From Verrucomicrobiota bacterium (GTDB lineage: Bacteria > Verrucomicrobiota > Verrucomicrobiia > Limisphaerales > Fontisphaeraceae), in the NCBI GenBank assembly GCA_037139415.1, contig JBAXGN010000091.1:1-30116 (forward strand): a stretch of DNA of 30,116 nucleotides, given 5' to 3'. Below the pieces are notes generated by a model. That model worked only from the letters and a program-made list of their open reading frames with translations. It did no database searches and was not told the DNA's origin. Numbering within the stretch: the stretch's first letter is position 1; every line of letters begins with the position of its first letter. The translations under genes were made by a program, and so were the position numbers. Of this stretch, positions 11,647 to 25,286 are shown piece by piece.

Positions 11647-14185
<2,539 letters not shown>

Positions 14186-14193
<8 letters not shown>

Positions 14194-15292
14194 TGGGATG
14201 CCTCTTGATGACTTCCCAGTGACCGGCCTTGTCGGAGCCCACGCGCTTGATCCGGCCCTGTTCACGGAGAACCTTGAGGTGTCGCTTGATGGTTTTGTCG
14301 GTTACGCCCAGCGTGAGTGCCATCTTCTGCGCCGTGGCTTTAGGATTGGCCCGCACCAGAATCAGAATTTTGTCCCGGATCTCGTTTACAGGGACATTTA
14401 CAGGGACATTTACAGGGACATCTTCCGTGATGCTTTCCCGGCTCTCCGTCGCCACATCAATGAACTTATACAGCGAATTCCCAATGGCATCGAGCATGAA
14501 GCTGATGAACGGACGACAGTCCACCGCGCCTGCCTGCGAATCCTGCAGCGCCTGGTAGTAAAGCGCTTGGTTGTGGTGGACCAGGGTTTCCACCGGCATC
14601 CAGGCAAACAGCGGATTCCATCGGGAAAGGACCAAGGTCTGCCACAGCCGCCCGATTCTGCCGTTGCCGTCGAGGAAGGGATGGATGTTTTCCAGCATGT
14701 AGTGGACGGCAGAACTCTTGATGAGCGGGTGCGCTTCGCTGGCCTTCCCCCAGTGCAGGAGCTGCTCGACGAGGGCGGGCACCTGTTTCGCCGGGGCACC
14801 GCGATGCATCACCGCGCCATCGCCGCGCACGACGGCCACGCCGACCGTCCGGAACTGGCCCGACTCCCCGATGAGTGCATCGGTCAGGTGCGCGTGGGCT
14901 TTCAGCAAGTCGCTCACCGACCAGGGCTCATAGTCAGTCATTTCGTTGTAGGCATGCCACGCGTTCTGCACCTCCTTGATGTCCTTGGGCGGCCCCCAGA
15001 CCGGCTTGCCGTTGATGACATCGGTGACCTGGCCCAAGGTGAGCTGGTTGCCTTCGATGGCGGTGGAGGCATGGATCGAGAGAATGCGATTGAGTTTGCG
15101 CAGGTGCAACACATCGCCGGACTGTTCCTCCCTGATTTTGACGCGCTCGAGCAGGGCGTGAATCTCGCCGATCTTTTCATGCCATCCTGGGGCTTCCGTG
15201 TAGAACTGTTCCAGCGGCTTCACGGTCTTGTCTCCTTTGGTTTGCCACCAGGTCCGGACAAGCGCTGTTTCACCTCGTGCGTAGTCTGCCAC
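14186..15292 (-). CDS. Fic/Doc family protein (class II Fic, N-terminal inhibitory motif) with C-terminal winged-HTH domain; start uncertain
   Basis: Fic active-site motif HPFLDGNGRIGR. Upstream STAIEG matches the (S/T)xxxE(G/N) autoinhibition motif. C-terminal RANPKATAQKMALTLGVTDKTIKRHLKVLREQGRIKRVG is a wHTH. Contains an in-frame VPVN x3 tandem repeat. Confidence 0.8.
14385..14420 (-). repeat. perfect 12 bp x 3 tandem repeat (TTTACAGGGACA) inside the Fic coding sequence, encoding VPVN-VPVN-VPVN in the linker before the wHTH
   Basis: Direct reading of the sequence; in frame. Confidence 0.9.
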
Positions 15293-15399
15293 ACCTTGTG
15301 CAACCCCTTGTGCGCCTTGTCAGCGATGGCGTAGGCGTAGATGCGCAACCGGGTTTCCGGCTTCGGCGCAAGGATTTCTTCGATGGTGGGTTTACTCAT
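15220..15399 (-). pseudogene. duplicated N-terminal fragment of the T5orf172-helicase gene (59-codon ORF MSKPTIEEILAPKPETRLRIYAYAIADKAHKGLHKVWQTT...), junction repeat copy 2
   Basis: Begins with the same ATGAGTAA overlap on the DUF1016 stop. Its first 40 codons are near-identical to the helicase N-terminus, after which it diverges and stops. It overlaps the annotated Fic start region. Confidence 0.7.
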
Positions 15400-16620: not shown

Positions 16621-16720
16621 AGCCCCAACGGGGCGGGCTACGTCAGCCCAGGGCAACGCCCTGGGAACCGGGTCAAACCAAACCCACCAGCCCTGAAAGG
16701 GCGGCCCAACGCGCCGTTTA
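16621..16720 (+). repeat. REP-like palindromic element, solo copy A (hairpins CCCCAACGGGG, CCCAGGGCAACGCCCTGGG, GCCCTGAAAGGGC)
   Basis: About 85% identical over ~75 bp to copies at 18524-18621 (same orientation) and 19073-19158 (inverted). Confidence 0.8.
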
Positions 16721-16728
16721 ATCGCACT

Positions 16729-16836
16729 CTGCACCCGCACTTCCACCCCGTCGCCGCCGGTCTGGTAGGCGAAGGTTAGAAATTCCGCCGTGCTGTTGCG
16801 GATGCGCACACTGTTCGGTGATTGCTTTTTAGGCAT
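16729..16836 (-). pseudogene. RhuM-family N-terminal fragment (~35 codons) truncated by REP copy A
   Basis: MPKKQSPNSVRIRNSTAEFLTFAYQTGGDGVEV parallels the RhuM start at 19570 (KKSTAVSLVRSSAAEYLTFVAASGQGGVEAV). The reading frame then runs into the REP sequence. Confidence 0.55.
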
Positions 16837-16850
16837 GGGTGTCTCCGTGT

Positions 16851-16892
16851 CTATGGCTTCGGCGCCAGAATTTCTTCGATGGGTTTACTCAT
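16851..16892 (-). pseudogene. junction repeat copy 3: 13-codon relic of the T5orf172-helicase N-terminus (MSKPIEEILAPKP*) overlapping the MTase stop as ATGAGTAA
   Basis: Sequence atgagtaaacccatcgaagaaattctggcgccgaagccatag directly follows the MTase stop at 16885. Confidence 0.7.
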
Positions 16893-18471
16893 CGCTGTCG
16901 CCTTCGGCCATTGGGCGGATCATTGACTCAATGAAGGCGATTTCATCCTTCGTGAGCTTGTATTTTTGATAGAGGAGAGCGTCTGTCCATTTGCGACTCC
17001 ACTGCTGCTGCGGAAGCCATGAATACGTTCCCCGCGGCAAATCTTGCGTAATCTTCCGCAACGAAATGAGAAAGCGCGCAAATCGAGTGCGAAGATATGC
17101 GTCGCAACTCACCGCCTCTGTCTCGGATGAGAAAGGCCCGGCAACGACGTAAGTCTGAGTGCAGACAGAGTGTGGGCCAGCGACAACCCTAGGACCAAGG
17201 ACGTTCGCAGGGATCGCTCCACGCTCTCCGTATGCTTTCGGGAGAAGCAATTTCCAAACGGGAATGAGATGCCTGTTTTTTGTGACTGATGAATCTTTTA
17301 TCCAGCCGACTACGCGCTTCTGGTTAACGGACACGTGTAACTTGATGGCGCTCTTGAAGGGCTTCTCCTCGAAATCCTCGAAGTTCGTGGCGAGCCCGAA
17401 TGGCGTGTCTCCGCTCACGAGGTCTGCCACCGAAAGTTCATTCAAGCGTTGAACTTTCTTCAAAATGCTAACCGCACGCGTGTCTCGCACGAAGATGTCG
17501 AACTCATCCAGCTTGCGAGCAACAGGCTGCTGCTGTTCGTCTCCAAGCACGAGACTATATTTGCAGTCGCCTTGATGATTTCCGTCCCATAAGAAGTAAC
17601 CAACCCCACCTTCAAAATCTACGCCCGGAAATGCAGTGGACATCTTCGTGTAATCAACAAGGTGGCTGATGTGTCCGCCGGTAAGCATGGACTTTCGGAA
17701 CTCGTCCATGCCGCGTCCACCGGCCAGCCACCTTGACGGGATCACCATGCTCAGGAAGCGCGGGTCGAGCTTCAGCGCCTGCTCTACAAAAAGGTGGTAG
17801 ATCGAGGAGTCGCTCGAACCGCCTGCACCACCCTTCATTTGATACGGTGGATTTCCGATGATAACGTCGAATTGCATGTTGCCTCCAAATATCTCGGCGA
17901 GCCGAGTCTTGATGTTGTCGGTGTGAATGAACGCGTAGGCGTGGGTTTCAAGGCCTTTGGCCCGATCAAAAACGGATCGTCCGGCCCCACAATACTCGCA
18001 CTTGTCCCCATCCCAGGTGTGTTCCATGCGCTGAAACCAGATATTCCCATCATCGCTGGTGAAAGATTTGGCGATGGAGTGCTCACCTTTGGCGTGCTTG
18101 GAGCAATACACACTCCGGCGCGCCAGCAGGCTGGTGATTTGCGTGATGCCGATGCCGAACACCTGCTTTGTCAGGATGTGGTTCACGCGCTTCTGGAGAA
18201 CGGGAATCTCGCCCTCCAATCCCTTGGTGAGGCGGTTGGTGATCTCGCGCAGGAACACCCCGGATTTTGTGCAGGGATCCAGGAACTTCACCGTCTTGTC
18301 CGCCCATATATTTGCGCCATTGTTGTTCGCCGCCCACGCCTCGGTCAGCGTGTCCAGCATCCGGTTCGCGAACTCGGGCGGCGTGAACACCTCATCATTG
18401 GAGAGATTCGCGATGCACGTCAATACATCCGGGTTGCGGCCGCGCAGGGTGAATGACGCTTGTTCATTCAT
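16885..18471 (-). CDS. N6-adenine DNA methyltransferase, gamma class (motif order X-I-IV; M.TaqI/Eco57I-like) with ~300 aa C-terminal putative target-recognition region
   Basis: Start MNEQASF at 18471 with an AGGAG-like RBS. Motif X DEVFTPPEF, motif I FLDPCTKSGVFL, motif IV DVIIGNPPYQ. The ORF-track start at 18501 is less likely. Confidence 0.85.
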   Translation of the reverse strand: MNEQASFTLRGRNPDVLTCIANLSNDEVFTPPEFANRMLDTLTEAWAANNNGANIWADKTVKFLDPCTKSGVFLREITNRLTKGLEGEIPVLQKRVNHILTKQVFGIGITQITSLLARRSVYCSKHAKGEHSIAKSFTSDDGNIWFQRMEHTWDGDKCEYCGAGRSVFDRAKGLETHAYAFIHTDNIKTRLAEIFGGNMQFDVIIGNPPYQMKGGAGGSSDSSIYHLFVEQALKLDPRFLSMVIPSRWLAGGRGMDEFRKSMLTGGHISHLVDYTKMSTAFPGVDFEGGVGYFLWDGNHQGDCKYSLVLGDEQQQPVARKLDEFDIFVRDTRAVSILKKVQRLNELSVADLVSGDTPFGLATNFEDFEEKPFKSAIKLHVSVNQKRVVGWIKDSSVTKNRHLIPVWKLLLPKAYGERGAIPANVLGPRVVAGPHSVCTQTYVVAGPFSSETEAVSCDAYLRTRFARFLISLRKITQDLPRGTYSWLPQQQWSRKWTDALLYQKYKLTKDEIAFIESMIRPMAEGDSDE

Positions 18472-18523
18472 GGTTTCTCGTCTCCTGCCTGCCGTGGCCA
18501 ATTAAGCCCGAACTCCGAAGTTG

Positions 18524-18621
18524 CAGGCCAAAGGCCTGACCCATGCCAGCCCAGGGCAACGCCCTGGGAACCGGGACAAACAAAATCCACCAGCCCTGAA
18601 GGGGCGGCCCAACGCGCCGTT
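18524..18621 (+). repeat. REP-like element copy B (3' flank of RAYT gene)
   Basis: ggccaaaggcc hairpin, then cccagggcaacgccctggg and ccagccctgaaggggcggcccaacgcgccgtt. Confidence 0.8.
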
Positions 18622-19070
18622 CAATCCCACACATACCGTTCATCGAACACCACGCCGTGGCGTTCCAAAAACGCACGGTATTCCTCCTGGAACGATTTGC
18701 GCCGGTGGTGTTCCGGCTGGCGGGCGATGTAATCGCGGACGGATGGCACGTTGGATTCGCTGACGGCAAACGCCCCGTAACCCGCCTGCCACGCGAAAGA
18801 ACCCAATTCCATTCCCTGCGTTTTAATCCATTTGGAAGAGGTTTTTTTGACCTCTTCCACCGCCTGGCTGACCGAGACCGTGCGGGCAAGTTCAAAAAGG
18901 ATGTGGACATGATCGGCCACGGAGTTGATAAGCACGGGCGCGCAGCCAAGGTTTTGGAGCACGGCCATGTAGGCGTGCAGGGAATCACGAACGGCGTCAG
19001 TGATGAGGCGCTCGCGATGTTTGGTGCTGAAGATGAGATGGACGTGGAGACGCGCGAGGGATTGAGGCAT
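18621..19070 (-). CDS. REP-associated tyrosine transposase (RAYT), IS200/IS605 TnpA-like HUH Y1 transposase
   Basis: 149 aa. HUH motif HVHLIF. Catalytic Tyr region DYIARQ. Size and motifs are typical of RAYT/TnpA_IS200. Flanked on both sides by inverted REP-like repeats. Confidence 0.8.
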   Translation of the reverse strand: MPQSLARLHVHLIFSTKHRERLITDAVRDSLHAYMAVLQNLGCAPVLINSVADHVHILFELARTVSVSQAVEEVKKTSSKWIKTQGMELGSFAWQAGYGAFAVSESNVPSVRDYIARQPEHHRRKSFQEEYRAFLERHGVVFDERYVWD

Positions 19071-19072
19071 GG

Positions 19073-19158
19073 GTTGGGCCGCCCTTTCAGGGCTGGTTTG
19101 GGGTTGCGGTTTGGATTCCCAGGGCGTTGCCCTGGGCTGGGCTTGGGCCGCGCCGTTG
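19073..19158 (-). repeat. REP-like element copy C (5' flank of RAYT gene, inverted relative to copy B)
   Basis: Reverse complement reads ...ggcccaagcc-cagcccagggcaacgccctggg...ccagccctgaaagggcggcccaac, directly abutting the RAYT ATG. Confidence 0.8.
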
Positions 19159-19159
19159 G

Positions 19160-19570
19160 CGCTGTGACGGGATCAATGATGCCGGAGGCCCATTTGCGGA
19201 ACTGCACGGCGCGTTCGGAGTTGACCTTGTAGCCAACGGCGATGATGGCGGCGAGGTTGTAGTGCTGGGTGTCGTAGGATTTGCCGTCAGCGGCAGTTAT
19301 CCGAAAATATTGGATAACTGAATCTGCCTCCAACTCATGGTCAATAAACACCTTTTGCAGGTGGTAGCTGATCGTCCTGACATCTACATCGTAAAGCAGC
19401 CCCATCATCTTCTGGGTGAGCCAGATATTTTCATCGGCGTAAACGGCTTCGACGCCACCCTGGCCGCTGGCCGCCACAAAGGTCAGGTATTCCGCCGCCG
19501 AAGAGCGAACCAGGGAGACGGCGGTGCTCTTTTTGGCGCGACCGTCTGGTGTGGGTTTGCTTTTGCTCAT
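19160..19570 (-). pseudogene. RhuM (virulence_RhuM family) gene, N-terminal ~137 codons intact, 3' part replaced or interrupted by the REP/RAYT element
   Basis: AEYLTFVAASGQGGVEAVYADENIWLTQKMMGLLYDV...DGKSYDTQHYNLAAIIAVGYKVNSERAVQFRKWASGII matches the conserved RhuM core. The ORF-track 368 aa product is a read-through across REP and RAYT-flank sequence. Confidence 0.6.
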
Positions 19571-20244
19571 GGCGCCGCCCTCCGGTTGGCAAGCGAAACT
19601 TCAGCGGCCTCCAGTGCCACGGCGGCCAATTCACCCACGGTCATGGGCGGATAGGTTTTGGCCGGCGTGAAAATCTCGTGTTTGCCAAGGTGGGCAAAGA
19701 GCGAACCCTCGGCACTGTAGGCGGATGATTGAGTGAGGCTATCGAACCGGAAGTCACGCCGCTGGAACCGGCCTTTGCCCAGATAACCCCACTCGGCGAA
19801 AGTGATCGGCAGGTTGCCTTGGGCGCGCATCGTCAATGCGTCGCCGTGGACGAGGTTTTGCGAAAGCACGTAGAAGGCGGCGTGATACAGGTCGTTCGCC
19901 GGAGCGAGGTTCAGATACTCGGCAAAGATTTCGAGCAGGTTGGCGCGGCACTCAGCGATGTTGTCTGGTAACAGTTCGATGCCGTAAATACACATCAAGC
20001 CAAGCAGCGCGTAGTGGCGTCGCTCGAAATCGGACTGCCCGTATTTGAGTTCCACAGCGGCAAGCTTCCGCCGCAGAATCTGCACGAGGAAGTTGCCATC
20101 CCCGCATGCCGACTCCAAGAAGCGTGAGTCAATCCGCTCCGTCTCGCTCTTTACAAGATCAAGCATGGCCTCGACCAGCCAGGCTGGAGTGAAGACCTCC
20201 CCGTGGTCGGCGACCCGTTGTTTGGACTTCACCAGGCTCATAGG
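19567..20244 (-). CDS. methyltransferase-like protein fragment (gamma-class N6A-MTase N-terminal region, catalytic motif IV degenerate); probable inactivated paralog or remnant
   Basis: Start MSLVKSKQ at 20244. Motif X GEVFTPAWL. Motif I FLESACGDGNFL. At the position expected for GNPPY the sequence is GNLPITF. Only ~225 aa with no TRD. Stop overlaps the RhuM start as ATGA, in the same style as the MTase/helicase junction. Confidence 0.5.
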   Translation of the reverse strand, partial: PMSLVKSKQRVADHGEVFTPAWLVEAMLDLVKSETERIDSRFLESACGDGNFLVQILRRKLAAVELKYGQSDFERRHYALLGLMCIYGIELLPDNIAECRANLLEIFAEYLNLAPANDLYHAAFYVLSQNLVHGDALTMRAQGNLPITFAEWGYLGKGRFQRRDFRFDSLTQSSAYSAEGSLFAHLGKHEIFTPAKTYPPMTVGELAAVALEAAEVSLANRRAAP

Positions 20245-20449
20245 GCAAATGAGAAAACTGGGCTGGGCAGAACAAGGCACATAACCGCCGGATATTCGCG
20301 CGGATTTGGCGTTGCTGCACTAACCGATGACCTGCTTGCTGCCATATATCTTCACCGTCCGACCACCCGTGTTAAAGGTGCCTAGCCGGGTTAGTTACTT
20401 CGGTAATGACCTTAACGGGAGAGGGACAAGGCAGCAAGGACAAAGGCGG

Positions 20450-20866
20450 TTACGGTTGGGAACGGGTGGAGAGAAAGTTGGTCGGTGTGACGGCCGCCAC
20501 AGGCGAACCGGCGAAGTCGGCCACGTTGCGGGTGATGATGTAATCGCAATGGCCGGCCTCGGCCAGGCTGGCAACGACGGCATCCTCAAAGTCCGGGAGG
20601 GCCAATTGGCGGGCGCGACGGAACACCGCTTTATCGGCTACGGCGACATCGAAATGAGCCAGCATCCAATCAATGATTTGGTCAGCTTTGGGCTTGGCGG
20701 ACGCTTTGGCCAGGATGTAGTAGAGGGTGGTCAACGCGTGACTGGGGAGCAAGGCTTCGATTTCCCCGAGGCGGGCCAAGCTCAGCACCTCCGCCGAATC
20801 CTGGTAGTAGGGCAGCCGGTTTTGGACGACATCCAGCACGACGTTGAGGTCGAGCAAGACTTTCAT
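20450..20866 (-). CDS. PIN-domain toxin (VapC-like)
   Basis: 138 aa. N-terminal LLDLNVVLDV (first acidic residue), later DFEDAVVASLAEAGHCDYIITRNVADF (PIN acidic residues). Overlaps the upstream small gene by 4 bp. Confidence 0.7.
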   Translation of the reverse strand: MKVLLDLNVVLDVVQNRLPYYQDSAEVLSLARLGEIEALLPSHALTTLYYILAKASAKPKADQIIDWMLAHFDVAVADKAVFRRARQLALPDFEDAVVASLAEAGHCDYIITRNVADFAGSPVAAVTPTNFLSTRSQP

Positions 20867-21099
20867 CGGTGCTTATCGAGCAAATGTTGGCGGTATTCGG
20901 CCTTGGCGTCGAGGTCCGGCGGAACCAGTCCGGTGATGGCTGCCACCTCCGGGTGGATGACGGGACGGACGCGGGTATGCAGACGCCGCACCGTCTGGCC
21001 AAGGGCTTCGGCCACGGTCAGGCCGTGCTGTCGGGCATATCCCTCGAGAAACTCAATGTCCTCGGCGGGCAAGGTCACTGTTAGTGTCGCTGCTGGCAT
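20863..21099 (-). CDS. putative antitoxin of the PIN toxin (small DNA-binding protein)
   Basis: 78 aa ORF immediately upstream of, and translationally coupled to, the PIN gene. Typical type II TA arrangement. No strong motif assigned. Confidence 0.5.
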   Translation of the reverse strand: MPAATLTVTLPAEDIEFLEGYARQHGLTVAEALGQTVRRLHTRVRPVIHPEVAAITGLVPPDLDAKAEYRQHLLDKHR

Positions 21100-21362: not shown

Positions 21363-22436
21363 TTACTTGCGAAGTTCCGGCACGGGCACTTGCAGCATCA
21401 CGTTGGCCGACTCTTTCCCGTTGCCCCAATACCAGGACGGGTAATGGCCATCCCATTTTTCCACCCGCGCCTTTTCCACTTCCATGGCCTTGAGTTGCAT
21501 GAGGATGGGGTTGCTGCTGGCTTCCTCAGCCGCCTGGCTGATCTCCCGGATGGCCTGAGCCTCGGCGGTGGCGGCGGTACGGCGGGCATCTGCCAATCCC
21601 ATGGCTTCGCGTCGCGCTTTCTCCGCTTGCGCCTGCGCTTCGAGTTCGATGCGGTCGTTCTCGCGCTTCTGCGCCTCAAATTTCGCTTCGCTGACCACCT
21701 TCAGTTGCTGGGCAATAAAGGTCTGGTCAATGGACTTCTGGATTTCCGGGTTCTCATAAGTCATCCCGCCAAACATTCCTGCCGTGGTGATGGTTACCCC
21801 GCGCGCCTGGAAAAAGTTGGTCACATCCTTTTTCACCGCATCGGCGATCTCCTGTTTTTTCGAGCGCAGGCTGTCCAGTGGATACCGTGCCGCCACTTCC
21901 GCGGCCGCCTGTTGGATGCGTCCCCGCACTTCGTGATCCATCACTTCGGCCAGTGTCCCGCTCGGGTACCAGTACAGGAAGCGCGACGCATCATCCTCGC
22001 TGACGAATGCCGTACACGTGAATCCCATGCTGAAGCCCACGCTGTCGGCACTCTCGATCCAGATGGCCTTGTCCGTGCGCTGTGCCGCCGTGCCGCTGCC
22101 GGTCGTCTGCGTGGTGGTCCATTCCCGCGTGATGGGGGAACGGTTGACCTTCACCAGTCGCACCGTGGCAATCCAGCGGCCATCATGGCTGAGCCGGCCT
22201 TCCTGGGACCACCGGTGCGTGATTTGCACCCGCTTGGCGGCCACCTTGCGTTGCTTGAGGTATTCCTCGGATTCAAACCGCGCCTGTTGCGTGGTGTCGC
22301 CCTCCAGCGGAATCAGAAAGCCCGTGTCGGACGTGTCAATCTCCACATATTCCGGCCGGTCATAAGGCTTCACGCATCCGCCGAATAACGGCAGCACCAG
22401 CACTGTCAACAGGGCGGTGGTTTTGCTGCGGGCCAT
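21363..22436 (-). CDS. SPFH/band-7 (prohibitin-homology) domain lipoprotein
   Basis: Start MARSKTTALLTVLVLPLFGGC (lipoprotein signal with lipobox). SPFH core with FGGMTYENPEIQKSIDQ and a Glu/Ala/Gln/Lys-rich coiled coil (EAQKRENDRIELEAQAQAEKARREA). The ORF track extends in frame to 22742, an alternative start. Confidence 0.75.
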   Translation of the reverse strand: MARSKTTALLTVLVLPLFGGCVKPYDRPEYVEIDTSDTGFLIPLEGDTTQQARFESEEYLKQRKVAAKRVQITHRWSQEGRLSHDGRWIATVRLVKVNRSPITREWTTTQTTGSGTAAQRTDKAIWIESADSVGFSMGFTCTAFVSEDDASRFLYWYPSGTLAEVMDHEVRGRIQQAAAEVAARYPLDSLRSKKQEIADAVKKDVTNFFQARGVTITTAGMFGGMTYENPEIQKSIDQTFIAQQLKVVSEAKFEAQKRENDRIELEAQAQAEKARREAMGLADARRTAATAEAQAIREISQAAEEASSNPILMQLKAMEVEKARVEKWDGHYPSWYWGNGKESANVMLQVPVPELRK

Positions 22437-23133
22437 GTGCGCCCGTGCCCGTTCCCAGGCGTGCCGCAACCATGGCGCAAAGCACAACCAGCCTGTGGTC
22501 AGGATGGCCAGCAGGGCCAGAACGTGCATCCCGTCACGCCATGCCTCGGCCAATCGCATTCCGCCGCTGGCGTCGGCGCGCGGGTTGAATTGCTGCAACG
22601 CCAGCGCCGTGTAAGGCGCGGTTTGCGAGCGGCTGAGCCAGTACATTTCCGCCGTTGAAATCGTGGCGGCTACCAACGCGAATAACAGGATACGTTTCAT
22701 AATCAGACTCCATCTGTGCGTCGTCTCCGGTGCTAGGTACAACGGGGCAGCGGCCTTTATGCCGGGATGAAAGTCCCGTCATCAAGACACCAGCACCCGC
22801 ATGCCGGGGCACACGGACACAACGTGTTGTTACTTACGGGGAGATCAGATGGTGCCACGACCTGTGGCCCTAGAGGATCGCCCTTCCAATTGCCTGCGAG
22901 GTTAGCTGACGGGCTCGGTCCTGGAAGTGACCTGGGAGTTGGTTCACAACTCCGTTCGCCCCAACCACCGTTCCAAGGTGGCATTTGGTTCCCCCGTGTC
23001 GTCCCGCAGGAAGGCGGTCCGACTTCGGCTGCATACTTCAGACATGGCACCTATCGCACATGAGGACAAACTTGTCAATAGGTGCCTCTGGAAGTGACTG
23101 ATAATCAGGGTAATCCTGATAGATAATCCTGCC

Positions 23134-23883
23134 CTATTGCGCCATCAACACCTGTAACATGCGCTGTGGGTTGGACAGGAAATCACGTGTGACCCGGTAA
23201 TGTTCAGTCTCTTCATAAGCAACCCGCTCGATGCCCTTGGTGGAAAAGGCGTAGATGGTGGCGTTCGGGTACGCCATCAAAATTGGCGAATGGGTGGCGA
23301 TGATGAACTGGGATTTTTCCTCGACCAAGTCGTGAATGCGCGTGATCACGGAGAGCTGGCGGCGGGGTGAAAGTGCCGCCTCCGGTTCATCCAGCAGGTA
23401 CAACCCTTCACCGCGAAAACGGTTGACCAGCAGCGCAAGAAAAGATTCCCCGTGCGATTGCTCGTGCAATGAGTGTTTCCCGTAGGCAGGGCCAATCGGC
23501 GGCCCGCCTCCCGGTTCAGCATCCAGCCGCTCAATTTCCGTCGCCACATTGAAAAAACTTTCCGCCCGCAGAAAAAAGCCGTCACGCGGCCGGGTGATGC
23601 CTCGCGAGATGCGCAGGTAGCGATGCAACTCCGAGTGGGAGCTGCGCGTTCCAAATTGGAAATTCTTGGAGCCCCCTTCGGCATTGAACCCGCAGGCCAC
23701 CGCAATGGCCTCCATCAGCGTGGATTTGCCCGACCCATTTTCTCCCACAAAGAACGTGACCGCCGGATGTAGTTCCAGACGATCCAGCGGTCGCACCGCC
23801 GGTAGCGAAAACGGATACCGGTCAAACGACTCCACGGCTTCCCGCTTTAGACAAATTTCGGCGATATATTGCTTTGAAATCAT
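23134..23883 (-). CDS. small ABC/SMC-like AAA ATPase (AAA_21/AAA_15-like ATP-binding protein)
   Basis: 249 aa. Walker A GENGSGKST. Signature/Walker B region LYLLDEPEAALSP. H-loop ATHSP. No partner gene on either side. Confidence 0.7.
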   Translation of the reverse strand: MISKQYIAEICLKREAVESFDRYPFSLPAVRPLDRLELHPAVTFFVGENGSGKSTLMEAIAVACGFNAEGGSKNFQFGTRSSHSELHRYLRISRGITRPRDGFFLRAESFFNVATEIERLDAEPGGGPPIGPAYGKHSLHEQSHGESFLALLVNRFRGEGLYLLDEPEAALSPRRQLSVITRIHDLVEEKSQFIIATHSPILMAYPNATIYAFSTKGIERVAYEETEHYRVTRDFLSNPQRMLQVLMAQ

Positions 23884-24023
23884 GGTAACCCATCATCATT
23901 CTATCGTGCCATCAGTAGCGAAATTAAGCGATTTCCATGAAATTACGAGCCTTTTTTGGGTTTTTATCACAAGTATAACATCCTTATTAACAAACTATTG
24001 CATAAAAGTGTCAAGATTCGCAT

Positions 24024-24052
24024 TTGCATTGCGAAACTTTCGCAGTTATAAT
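24024..24052 (+). promoter_or_regulatory. consensus sigma70-type promoter (TTGCAT-17 bp-TATAAT) with palindromic operator TGCGAAACTTTCGCA in the spacer and outer inverted repeat GATTCGCAT...ATGCGAATC
   Basis: Direct reading. The -10 hexamer ends 7 nt before the ATG at 24060, implying a leaderless or near-leaderless transcript. Confidence 0.45.
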
Positions 24053-24059
24053 GCGAATC

Positions 24060-25286
24060 ATGACACAGTATCGAAAACGTGAAGTTGGCCGATTCCTCGC
24101 GAAGGTGTTGCTGCAATTCCCTGTAGTCGTGATTAGCGGCCTGCGTCAAACGGGAAAAAGCACGTTATTGCAACTGGACCCGATTGCATCTGACAACCGT
24201 AGCTATCGTACACTGGACGATTTGAATACGCTTGAACAGGCGCGCAGCAATCCGCAGCAATTATTGGCAACCGCATCGGCACTGGCTTTGGATGAGGTGC
24301 AACGAGTGCCAGATATATTCCTGCCCGTCAAACGTTCGGTGGATCAAGAGCGCCGTCCCGGACGTTTTATTCTGACCGGTTCGGCCAATTTGCTGTTGAT
24401 GAAACAAGTTGCTGACAGCCTTGCTGGTCGGGCCATTTATGTTCAATTGCATCCGCTAAATCGCCGCGAGCTTTTTGGAAATGTCAGCGAAACACCTGCG
24501 TTGGTTCAGTTTCTTGAGACTGGCCAGTGGCCAAAGGTGGTTATCCCGCCGGTGACTGAGAGTGAAATTCTGCGTGGAGGTTTTCCGGAAATAGCCTTGA
24601 ATCCCGCTTTGGATGCCAATCTGTGGTTTGAAGGTTTTGAAAAAACCTATTTGGAACGGGATGTCCGGGATTTGCGGCGCGTGGAAAACTTATCGAGTTT
24701 CCGGCGTCTCTTGCGGTTATCGGCCTTGCGCATTGGCGGGATACTGAATGTCAGTAACCTGGGACGTGATGCTCACTTGCCGGAATCCACCACCCGCAGC
24801 CATCTGGATTTGCTGGAGGCTCTGATGGTAATTCAGCGGCTACCCCCGTTTTTTGGTAATCGCACTTCGCGACTGGTCAAGGCACCTAAATTATATTTTG
24901 CGGATTCAGGTCTGGCTGCATTTTTAGCCGGGATAACCGATCTCCATGACCATTCAGCCGAACCATTGCGGGGCGCACTCCTGGAAAATTACCTATTGCA
25001 GCAGCTACGGGCCACTTTGGATCCTTGGCTGAACGGCGTGCAGTTTCACTATTGGAATGAGCAGGGGCGTTACGAGGTGGACTTGGTGCTTGAACATAAG
25101 CGCCGAGTGCTGGCCATTGAAGTCAAGGCGGCCAGCCGTCTTTCCCCAAGTGATTGGCGATGTCTGGAAATGTTTCAGTCCATCACTCCCAACTGCTGTG
25201 GTGGCATTGTCGCTTATCAGGGAACGGAAATAGTGCCGCTGGGGAATAAGCTATGGGCGGTACCAATCCACGCTTTTCTGGCCTGA
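24060..25286 (+). CDS. AAA_14 / DUF4143 family ATPase
   Basis: Walker A GLRQTGKSTLL near the N-terminus. Walker B region LALDEVQRVPD. C-terminal DUF4143-like region. Start at ATG 24060 (or 24051). The ORF-track TTG at 24024 lies inside the promoter and is unlikely. Confidence 0.75.
   Translation: MTQYRKREVGRFLAKVLLQFPVVVISGLRQTGKSTLLQLDPIASDNRSYRTLDDLNTLEQARSNPQQLLATASALALDEVQRVPDIFLPVKRSVDQERRPGRFILTGSANLLLMKQVADSLAGRAIYVQLHPLNRRELFGNVSETPALVQFLETGQWPKVVIPPVTESEILRGGFPEIALNPALDANLWFEGFEKTYLERDVRDLRRVENLSSFRRLLRLSALRIGGILNVSNLGRDAHLPESTTRSHLDLLEALMVIQRLPPFFGNRTSRLVKAPKLYFADSGLAAFLAGITDLHDHSAEPLRGALLENYLLQQLRATLDPWLNGVQFHYWNEQGRYEVDLVLEHKRRVLAIEVKAASRLSPSDWRCLEMFQSITPNCCGGIVAYQGTEIVPLGNKLWAVPIHAFLA

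Follow-up and report, generated by a model that had tools for sequence, protein, structure and literature searches.

In a stretch of 30,116 nucleotides (nt) from contig JBAXGN010000091.1 of a Verrucomicrobiota bacterium (assembly GCA_037139415.1), an intact gene for a Y1 HUH nuclease of the IS200 branch (motifs DHVH, WQ and YxxxQxxHH) was found between two inverted, cognate modules of three hairpins each. Gene and modules very probably form a REPtron-like unit (REP, repetitive extragenic palindrome). Cognate inverted hairpin repeats, a feature of REPtrons, flank the gene in the window as well as in the relatives of its clade. The whole stretch of 30,116 nt is called the window in the following. 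All coordinates are positions in this window, L-numbers denote comparison loci and P-numbers protein variants. The surrounding operon is a three-gene set resembling a restriction-modification system, and the unit lies between its first gene and an Eco57I-type methylase gene (Table 1).

The open reading frame (ORF) of 149 amino acids (aa) described in a first-pass annotation of this DNA is present and intact. Residues 6-118 of the protein were aligned with profile positions 3-121 of 121 of Pfam Y1_Tnp (PF01797) with 80.1 bits at a cut-off of 23. The N-terminal HVHLIF, formerly taken for the HUH motif, was ruled out by alignment to ISDra2 TnpA and the relatives. Residues 9-14 correspond to strand beta-1 and align with 'YHLIWCVKYR' of ISDra2 TnpA; within HVHLIF, H11 alone is invariant among the relatives. 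The catalytic HUH motif is D53-H54-V55-H56 in ADHVHILF, which aligns with 'DHVHLL' of ISDra2. In contrast, the tyrosine motif DYIARQ had been assigned correctly, as Y114 aligns with the tyrosine of 'YIESQ' in ISDra2 TnpA. Q118 lies four residues after Y114, at the position which in IS608 supplies the third metal ligand. In nine relatives with 44-89% identity D53, H54, H56, W94, Q95, Y114, Q118, E120, H121 and H122 are invariant. Among solved structures, those nearest to the protein are TnpAs of the IS200/IS605 family, with IS608 TnpA besides the aligned ISDra2 TnpA among the matches; E. coli TnpA-REP was not among the matches to solved structures. Proteins of about 290 aa with two tandem Y1 domains (P0242-P0244, P0246, P0247 and others) were found among the best matches in the representative library. 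Y1 transposases such as IS608 act as dimers. Hence, by analogy, the tandem proteins may be single-chain dimers.

The protein had been designated a RAYT (REP-associated tyrosine transposase) but is not a canonical one. It failed the NCBIfam model REP_Tyr_transpos (NF047646) with 25.3 bits at a cut-off of 80 and passed the NCBIfam IS200 equivalog model with 61.5 bits at a cut-off of 55. Instead of the tyrosine motif Y-x-x-x-N-P of RAYTs (PMC6006769), YIARQPEHH (YxxxQxxHH) is present. The motifs W[TS] and Y[IV]ENQ of subclass 1.1 (PMC6006769) are likewise lacking, with WQ and YIARQPEHH in their place. For subclass 1.2, DH[IV]H, WQ, YIKNQKEHH and a median length of 148 aa were reported (Quentin et al. 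2018, Table 1; PMC6006769). The protein of the window agrees with this description in DHVH, WQ, YIARQPEHH, its length of 149 aa and a C-terminal tail, FQEEYRAFL..DERYVWD, conserved in the relatives. Subclass 1.2 was described as low in copy number, mostly from Cyanobacteria and Bacteroidetes, and with the entry 'REP: no' (Quentin et al. 2018; PMC6006769). Bertels et al. (2017) reported an 'IS200 Group 3' without duplicates, absent from plasmids and with abundant flanking 16-mers, which was suspected to be RAYT-like (PMC5581495). The branch of the window probably corresponds to subclass 1.2 as well as to this group; the three were equated by motifs and properties, not by published sequences. 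An exact look-up of the nuclease protein gave no record.

The inverted repeat pair around the gene, reported in the first-pass annotation, was recovered as modules B (18524-18620) and C (19071-19162), which lie in opposite orientations. Their inverted arms comprise 25 nt with 100% complementarity (18546-18570 / 19116-19140) and 40 nt with 83% complementarity (18589-18628 / 19058-19097). A third copy, module A (16622-16727), had been missed. It is oriented as B, to which it shows 85% identity along 103 nt. The 19-mer CCCAGGGCAACGCCCTGGG has three exact matches in the window (A, B and C; 0.02 expected), and the 23-mer CAGCCCTGAAAGGGCGGCCCAAC around the third hairpin has three with at most one mismatch (0.00 expected). 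As proposed earlier, the copies were folded. Each one, as single-stranded DNA, formed three hairpins, H1, H2 and H3, with z-scores of -2.1 to -3.8. The stem of H1 differs between the copies with pairing kept (GCCCC/GGGGC, CAGGCC/GGCCTG, GCGCC/GGCGC). A module of about 95 nt consists of H1 with its variable stem, of H2 (8-bp stem, 3-nt loop), which begins 12-13 nt further on and has a YAG foot before it, and of H3 (GCCCTGAAAGGGC) another 22 nt or so away.

The conserved arm was said to end exactly at the ATG of the nuclease gene. This is only nearly correct: module C stops 2 nt short of the ATG, and the complementarity crosses the start and stop codons. The inverted repeat at these codons (19058-19068 and 18621-18630) includes CAATCCC in ATGCCTCAATCCC (MPQS) and GGGATTG in TGGGATTGA (WD and stop). 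M1, Q3, S4 and L5 of the nuclease do not vary, and the YVWD at its C-terminus hardly does. Both ends of the coding sequence may thus also serve the DNA element. The claim of REPIN activity (REPIN, a doublet of REPs) did not hold for the window, where no doublet is present and the sole inverted pair encloses the nuclease gene.

The association of gene and modules was examined with a sample selected independently of the repeat. Eighty metagenome loci were chosen by the protein alone; 70 of them had flanks of 150 nt, and each was shuffled five times. An inverted repeat between upstream and downstream flank was found in 57 of the 70 loci, and none of the 70 reached the same score in any shuffle. 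The sequences shared by the flanks are variants of H1-H2 or of H3. The pattern 'AG + perfect 8-bp stem + 3-nt loop' was detected in 66 of 148 flanks and in none of 257 control segments; its distance to the start or stop codon is usually 44-62 nt. Eighteen different H2 stems occur in the flanks, e.g. CCTGGGGC/GCCCCAGG, CCCAGCCC/GGGCTGGG and CATGGGGC/GCCCCATG. The stems change lineage by lineage together with the adjacent protein gene. In the window's own clade, all 12 loci checked (eight distinct contexts) carry modules. The canonical H2 is identical letter for letter across phylum labels, beside proteins with 48-59% identity to that of the window. Some lineages conserve the hairpin more tightly than the protein. 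In flanks of L138, L150, L165, L172, L187 and L195, H2 has, in place of its 3-nt loop, an extra insert of 10-18 nt able to self-pair (for example CCCAGGGT-CAGCGCGAAGCGCGCC-ACCCTGGG).

Recurrence of the repeat outside the pair, on which the first-pass annotation had made its reading depend, was evident from the third copy in the window and from more than 120 stretches in other genomes. A scan of species-representative genomes with the H2 19-mer yielded at least 120 stretches; the following counts refer to the 120 listed. Eight assemblies occur twice among these first 120 matches. Verrucomicrobiota, Planctomycetota, Acidobacteriota, Lentisphaerae, Desulfobacterota and Bacteroidales (Prevotella, Segatella) were among the labels of the matches listed, and further ones were Akkermansia, Chlamydiae, Hydrogenedentota and others. 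A nuclease homologue with 45-77% identity was present in nine of the 120 stretches, mostly with H2 on both sides and inverted. The remaining 111 contained a module and no nuclease gene in the stretch fetched. For 59 of 156 copies an inverted partner was found at a distance of 60-260 nt, mostly 105-130 nt, with H3 facing H3. These inverted doublets without gene resemble REPINs, and their geometry is that of the gene-bearing unit minus the gene. The copies lie inside long open frames in 45% of cases, compared with 87% for random positions.

The plan of the module was found to be general. In 145 modules, A stands at position -2 in 140, G at -1 in 139 and a pyrimidine (C or T) at -3 in 131. In 125 of the 145 modules, 12-13 nt upstream of H2, a hairpin with 5 bp or more is located (99 of 725 random segments), and the third hairpin begins 21-25 nt downstream of H2. 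Fifty modules were aligned with respect to pairing. Of all cells, 97.9% pair, and changes on both sides occurred at 17 of 18 pairs. None of 500 shuffles reached this level, and slid controls showed 24-56% pairing. H2 had been chosen for its pairing in this alignment. H1 and H3, which had not been chosen in this way, pair in 95.6% and 96.8% of the cells, respectively.

The pair of H2 and H1, read on the opposite strand, is identical with the Rfam motif Acido-Lenti-1 (RF01687). Module A matches with 35.8 bits and module B with 28.4 bits (18524-18568, minus strand). These copies are below the gathering score of 37, and module C was not listed as a match. Among modules beside homologous genes, 12 matches with 37.7-49.7 bits were obtained in eight of 20 loci; in several of these eight, matches in opposite orientations enclose the gene. 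Weinberg et al. (2010) described Acido-Lenti-1 as a candidate small RNA (sRNA) with 89 representatives from Acidobacteria and Lentisphaerae, sometimes near group II introns; a link to transposases or REPs was not made (PMC2864571). Both descriptions share two hairpins joined by CUR and about 12 nt, probably many copies per genome and the occurrence in Acidobacteria and Lentisphaerae. In contrast to the modules, Acido-Lenti-1 was described as a trans-acting sRNA candidate without gene association, and its model omits the third hairpin.

The modules could be genes or regulators of structured RNA (Acido-Lenti-1 sRNA, terminators, stabilizers), functionally unrelated to the nuclease gene. The listing of H2 and H1 by Rfam as a candidate sRNA with covariation (PMC2864571) and the strong covariation of the stems agree with this explanation, but it is highly improbable. 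The modules stand on both sides of the gene in opposite orientations, at fixed distances from start and stop codon. A transcript in either direction would contain just one of the two in the sense of the Rfam model. Single mispairs in H2 on the foot strand are more often G:T (26) than A:C (9), so the wobble pairs favor the strand opposite to the Rfam model. The closing pair of H3 is T:G in 16 of 50 modules. T runs are absent, and the prediction of intrinsic terminators gave no terminator-like site on any module; modules as intrinsic terminators were therefore rejected. Moreover, the stems covary by lineage with the adjacent protein gene. The inverted arrangement around the gene, the excess of G:T over A:C, the lack of T runs and terminator-like sites, and the depletion from long open frames favor an element acting at the level of DNA.

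A further explanation is an ordinary autonomous insertion sequence (IS) of the IS200 family, which transposed into a RhuM gene and has the hairpin modules as its ends. The nearest solved structures are indeed IS200/IS605 TnpAs, the junction with RhuM on the left is exact at the module edge, and the slot of the operon which the unit fills differs between the window and the sister loci. Nevertheless, this explanation is improbable. IS608 and ISDra2 show that the ends of IS200/IS605 elements are asymmetric with both hairpins on one strand, whereas the ends found here are inverted modules of about 95 nt. WQ and YxxxQxxHH are present instead of W[TS] and Y[IV]ENQ (PMC6006769). The variants P0035, P0115 and P0063 each occur always in one genomic context, on at least 24 contigs apiece. 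Most modules (111 of the 120 listed stretches) are without gene. Relatives of the protein were found on two of 72,556 plasmids and the hairpin in 21 viral stretches, both collections having few members of the phyla in question; phages or plasmids as vehicles of spread were rejected on these numbers. Furthermore, the unit shows 84% DNA identity between the window and L001, and the neighboring genes show 81-85%. A recent insertion, as implied by the first-pass annotation, is not in line with this equal divergence. Single contexts, rarity on plasmids and in viruses, and a divergence equal to that of the neighbors thus seem to fit a resident low-copy gene better than an active IS.

The insertion of the unit into a RhuM gene was examined at both junctions. 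The 368-aa protein of the ORF list had been interpreted as a chimeric read-through, and this proved right: residues 84-132 alone match Pfam RhuM (PF13310), at profile positions 1-52 of 252, and a full-length match was not obtained. The RhuM frame is broken exactly at the repeat edge, as had been claimed, but the break is at T136 (19163) and not at WASGII (residue 132). It was located with the RhuM genes of L211 and L212, following a suggestion of the first-pass annotation to use orthologs. Their N-termini are 92% and 84% identical to that of the window on the protein level. DNA identity was 81-84% by blastn up to 19173, and the alignment was continued by eye to codon 136, placing the breakpoint at 19163, one base before H1 (19162). 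Codons 133-136 read ESFT/ASFT in L211/L212 and DPVT in the window. An origin of the 10 nt between 'WASGII' and H1 as filler from the usual slot of the unit (ATTGA microhomology) was rejected, as L211 and L212 show RhuM codons 133-136 there. The module edge A/GCGCC... is shared with seven other, unrelated contexts.

Past module B (18523 to 18468), the frame ends with ...GDEKP and stop, with a CCATGA overlap onto the ATG of the methylase gene (18471-18469). The intact relatives end alike (L211 ...KKGDKP, L001 ...KKKP, each followed by stop), and the homologue of position 18479 in L211 is immediately adjacent to the RhuM stop. Thus, RhuM scraps appear to lie on both sides of the unit, tentatively so for the 3' scrap, as predicted for an insertion. 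The insertion itself was supported in so far as a REP-gene-REP unit is lodged in RhuM with scraps on both sides; it is not the clean one that had been stated, because some 200 codons of RhuM are found nowhere in the window. A tblastn search of the whole window with a RhuM protein of 352 aa found residues 9-139 alone and no C-terminal part. The closest 120 RhuM relatives are all remnants of 117-231 aa, some of them on long contigs. They are cut or internally deleted at differing points, and the copy of L211 has an internal deletion. The RhuM lineage seems to survive mostly as remnants, or with the N-terminal domain kept alone, and the target may already have been a remnant before the insertion. 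The restriction methyltransferase reported next to the unit is indeed immediately downstream, as an Eco57I-family methylase.

The window genes of 237, 538 and 872 aa are orthologous to sets of 215, 528 and 845 aa in L229/L230 (82%, 65% and 86% aa identity), and L238 has such a set as well. Compared with L238 and L229, the 237-aa ORF shows 82-86% aa identity to their first genes (214-215 aa) and the methylase 59-65% to their methylases. In L001, L228-L230, L238 and L241, the unit follows the methylase and is not in RhuM. Its place there is the beginning of the third gene, the 5' end of which is duplicated (M.K.IEEILAPKPEARPRIYAYS...) and encloses the unit in one of its copies. At the same slot beyond the methylase, the window keeps the solo module A, which is of the 'downstream' type like B, and the last ~13 nt of the nuclease gene. 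Most likely, a copy of the whole unit entered RhuM, or what remained of it, about 2 kb upstream, whereby about 200 codons were lost, and most of the older copy later disappeared by deletion. Because unit and neighbors are equally diverged between the window and L001, and because the unit is placed after the methylase in the sister loci, it appears to be an old resident of the operon.

The true start of the 872-aa gene is the ATG at 14193 (MSKPTIEEILALKPEARPRIYAYS...). Its 5' end is repeated after the Fic, DUF1016 and methylase genes (14049-14193, 15255-15399 and 16845-16882). The same duplication is present on both sides of the nuclease unit in L229 and L241. It looks as if guest genes enter the junction with, or by recombination on, a copy of the start of the downstream gene.

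Ten contexts were compared for proteins with at least 81% identity to that of the window. Seven are restriction-modification operons: four are of Eco57I type, two are of type I and have the gene placed between hsdM and hsdS, and one contains scraps of HsdM and RhuM. Of the others, L131 has a DUF1016-like neighbor, and P0052 and L132 are without such neighbors. The nuclease gene is co-oriented with the adjacent operon genes. RhuM, DUF1016, PDDEXK_3, DUF3800 and HigB were found as guests alongside it in L218-L227, L228-L237, L238, L240, L244-L246 and L001. A link to restriction-modification for the whole protein family was rejected, as just four of 55 sampled loci of at least 3 kb have such neighbors. 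Five loci with proteins of 63-82% identity sit among ordinary metabolic genes, as ordinary genes mostly surround the more distant relatives, and the link is limited to the window's clade (at least 81% identity). In this clade, the gene may be a habitual guest of restriction-modification operons which takes part in the turnover of guest genes.

The arrangement could also have arisen without contribution of the nuclease, by recombination and deletion among the guest genes of the operon, with the repeats merely marking the breakpoints. The loss of about 200 RhuM codons, the fusion of a second RhuM scrap to a nuclease-gene scrap at module A and the frequent internal deletions in RhuM relatives are compatible with such events. 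In addition, the duplicated 5' end of the third gene borders every guest gene of the operon, indicating repeated recombination at these junctions. On the other hand, RhuM abuts the first base of H1 without foreign filler, and the same edge occurs in seven unrelated contexts, as predicted for the insertion of a defined element. The other side keeps an apparent RhuM stop which overlaps the start of the methylase gene. Recombination without the nuclease is therefore considered rather unlikely, though it is the strongest competitor of an insertion of the REPtron-like unit.

By analogy to known systems, the REPtron-like unit could work as follows. The nuclease would bind the hairpin on single-stranded DNA as a dimer, like the TnpAs of IS608 and ISDra2 and E. 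coli TnpA-REP. It would read the nucleotides of the foot and would cut and rejoin the DNA via a 5'-phosphotyrosine on Y114, with the metal presumably held by H54, H56 and Q118. Such cutting and rejoining could spread modules and doublets around the genome.

Several points weigh against this interpretation of the locus. Binding, cleavage site and mobility in this subclass are inferred from IS608/ISDra2 and E. coli TnpA-REP. The foot is YAG, and G at -4 is found in just nine of 145 modules, unlike the canonical GT[AG]G of REPs. About 13 of the 70 sampled homologues are without flanking inverted repeat, and NCBIfam calls the protein an IS200 transposase (61.5 bits vs 55). Of the source genome 30 kb were seen, with three modules and one gene. 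The 3' scrap of RhuM is short and weakly similar, and five or six sister loci served to reconstruct the probable succession of insertion, deletion and decay of the older copy.

Table 1 Features of the locus between 16.6 and 20.3 kb of the window, in the order of transcription
Feature	Position	Strand	Evidence and details
237-aa ORF, operon gene 1	19567..20280	-	weak N6_Mtase and MmeI_Mtase matches
RhuM 5' remnant, codons 1-136	19163..19570	-	Pfam PF13310, 54.2 bits
REP module C, 5' of nuclease gene	19071..19162	-	H1 19150-19162, H2 19118-19136, H3 19081-19093; AG foot 19137-19138; GGCCCAAC after H3 at 19073-19080
Y1 HUH nuclease gene, 149 aa	18621..19070	-	Pfam Y1_Tnp 1.8e-22; IS200-like subclass 1.2 type
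REP module B, 3' of nuclease gene, inverted relative to C	18524..18620	+	H1 18524-18538, H2 18550-18568, H3 18593-18605; AG foot 18548-18549; GGCCCAAC after H3 at 18606-18613
Probable RhuM 3' scrap, ~17 codons, ...SEFGLNWPRQAGDEKP and stop	18468..18523	-	weak local alignment, short, tentative
Eco57I-family N6-adenine DNA methylase	16885..18471	-	Pfam PF07669 4.6e-34; directly downstream of unit
Second RhuM-like N-terminal scrap, ~35 codons (...STAEFLTFAYQTGGDGVEVRVQ), fused to module A	16728..16836	-	ORF listing; likeness to RhuM N-terminus by eye; no Pfam match (too short)
Nuclease-gene 3'-end scrap, ~13 nt including stop codon, in module A feature	16711-16727		read from alignment
Solo REP module A	16622..16727	+	H1 16622-16634, H2 16647-16665, H3 16690-16702

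The ATG of the RhuM remnant overlaps the stop of the upstream 237-aa ORF. Beyond module A, in the order of transcription, a DUF1016/YhcG nuclease gene, a Fic gene and the 872-aa ORF follow. The Fic/HTH ORF holds three tandem copies of a 12-nt unit (TTTACAGGGACA) at 14385-14430. The right edge of the island is occupied by a PIN_3 toxin gene and its upstream partner of 78 aa (DUF6364) on the minus strand (20450-21099). L216, a contig of another sample with an identical PIN protein, stops about 370 nt beyond the PIN gene in the direction of the island. A c-di-AMP riboswitch of the ydaO type (22876-23040, minus strand; 69.1 bits at a gathering score of 38) is located upstream of a 459-aa ORF (21363-22742, minus strand), whose counterpart in L216 gave a weak Band_7 match. 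A near-perfect palindrome (24008-24066) with arms of 29 nt, 83% complementary and 1 nt apart, was found at the start of the ORF 24024-25286 (plus strand), which is divergent from the ORF 23134-23883 (minus strand). The palindrome could be an operator.

Among known systems, E. coli TnpA-REP (RAYT, YafM) and the REPIN-RAYT systems of Pseudomonas are similar in having a Y1 HUH gene, here probably of low copy number, between inverted hairpin repeats. Common features are also a short conserved 5' foot, the covariation of repeat and protein and, as judged here from other genomes, a repeat scattered outside genes, often as inverted doublets. REPs are usually species-specific, whereas H2 of the window type is identical in its letters across phylum labels. 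The RAYTs further differ in YxxxNP compared with YxxxQxxHH, in the foot GT[AG]G compared with YAG, and in a single palindrome compared with the three-hairpin module of about 95 nt. The RAYTs compared are groups 2 and 3 of Bertels et al. and subclasses 2.2 and 2.5 of Quentin et al. TnpA-Y1 of subclass 1.2 is alike in its motifs, a length of about 148 aa, a conserved C-terminal tail of about 30 aa and probably also low copy number and absence from plasmids. The IS200 group of Bertels et al. was reported to have abundant 16-mers in its flanks and no gene duplicates (PMC5581495). In contrast, subclass 1.2 was published as REP-less and mostly from Cyanobacteria and Bacteroidetes; here, modules flank the gene in 57 of the 70 sampled loci, and among the labels of the records are Verrucomicrobiota, Planctomycetota, Acidobacteriota and Nitrospirota. 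The TnpAs of IS200/IS605 (IS608, ISDra2) have the closest structures and the same layout of HUH, tyrosine and glutamine at Tyr+4, and the IS200 model was passed. Unlike these, the unit of the window is without a tnpB partner, has inverted-repeat ends and one context per variant, and its repeats are mostly without gene.

Relative to the literature examined, the element varies the theme of REPs and RAYTs on an IS200-like branch. In the literature on COG1943 and restriction, and on REPtrons and TnpA-REP since 2018, the repeat and REPs of subclass 1.2 were not described; subscription journals were mostly outside this coverage, and absence is not proven by it. A more far-reaching interpretation, to which we give somewhat less than even chances, is an unrecognized REP system. 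Here, the Acido-Lenti-1 'sRNA' would be the DNA hairpin substrate of Y1 nucleases of subclass 1.2, a branch linking IS200 and the domesticated RAYTs.

Four points follow if the interpretation is true. For annotation, it is of relevance that the modules create long spurious ORFs, like the 368-aa chimera, and mark breakpoints in defence islands. The system is readily testable with a protein of 149 residues and a hairpin substrate of 21 nt with a three-base foot. Naturally covarying pairs of protein and hairpin exist as specificity controls, e.g. the lineages with CCCAGGGC and CCTGGGGC. Moreover, a family listed by Rfam as 'sRNA' would have to be classed as a DNA repeat. REP-type repeats would then extend past the class-2 RAYTs, with the IS200-like branch having its own, and this would bear on the question of a single or a repeated domestication of IS200-type transposases.

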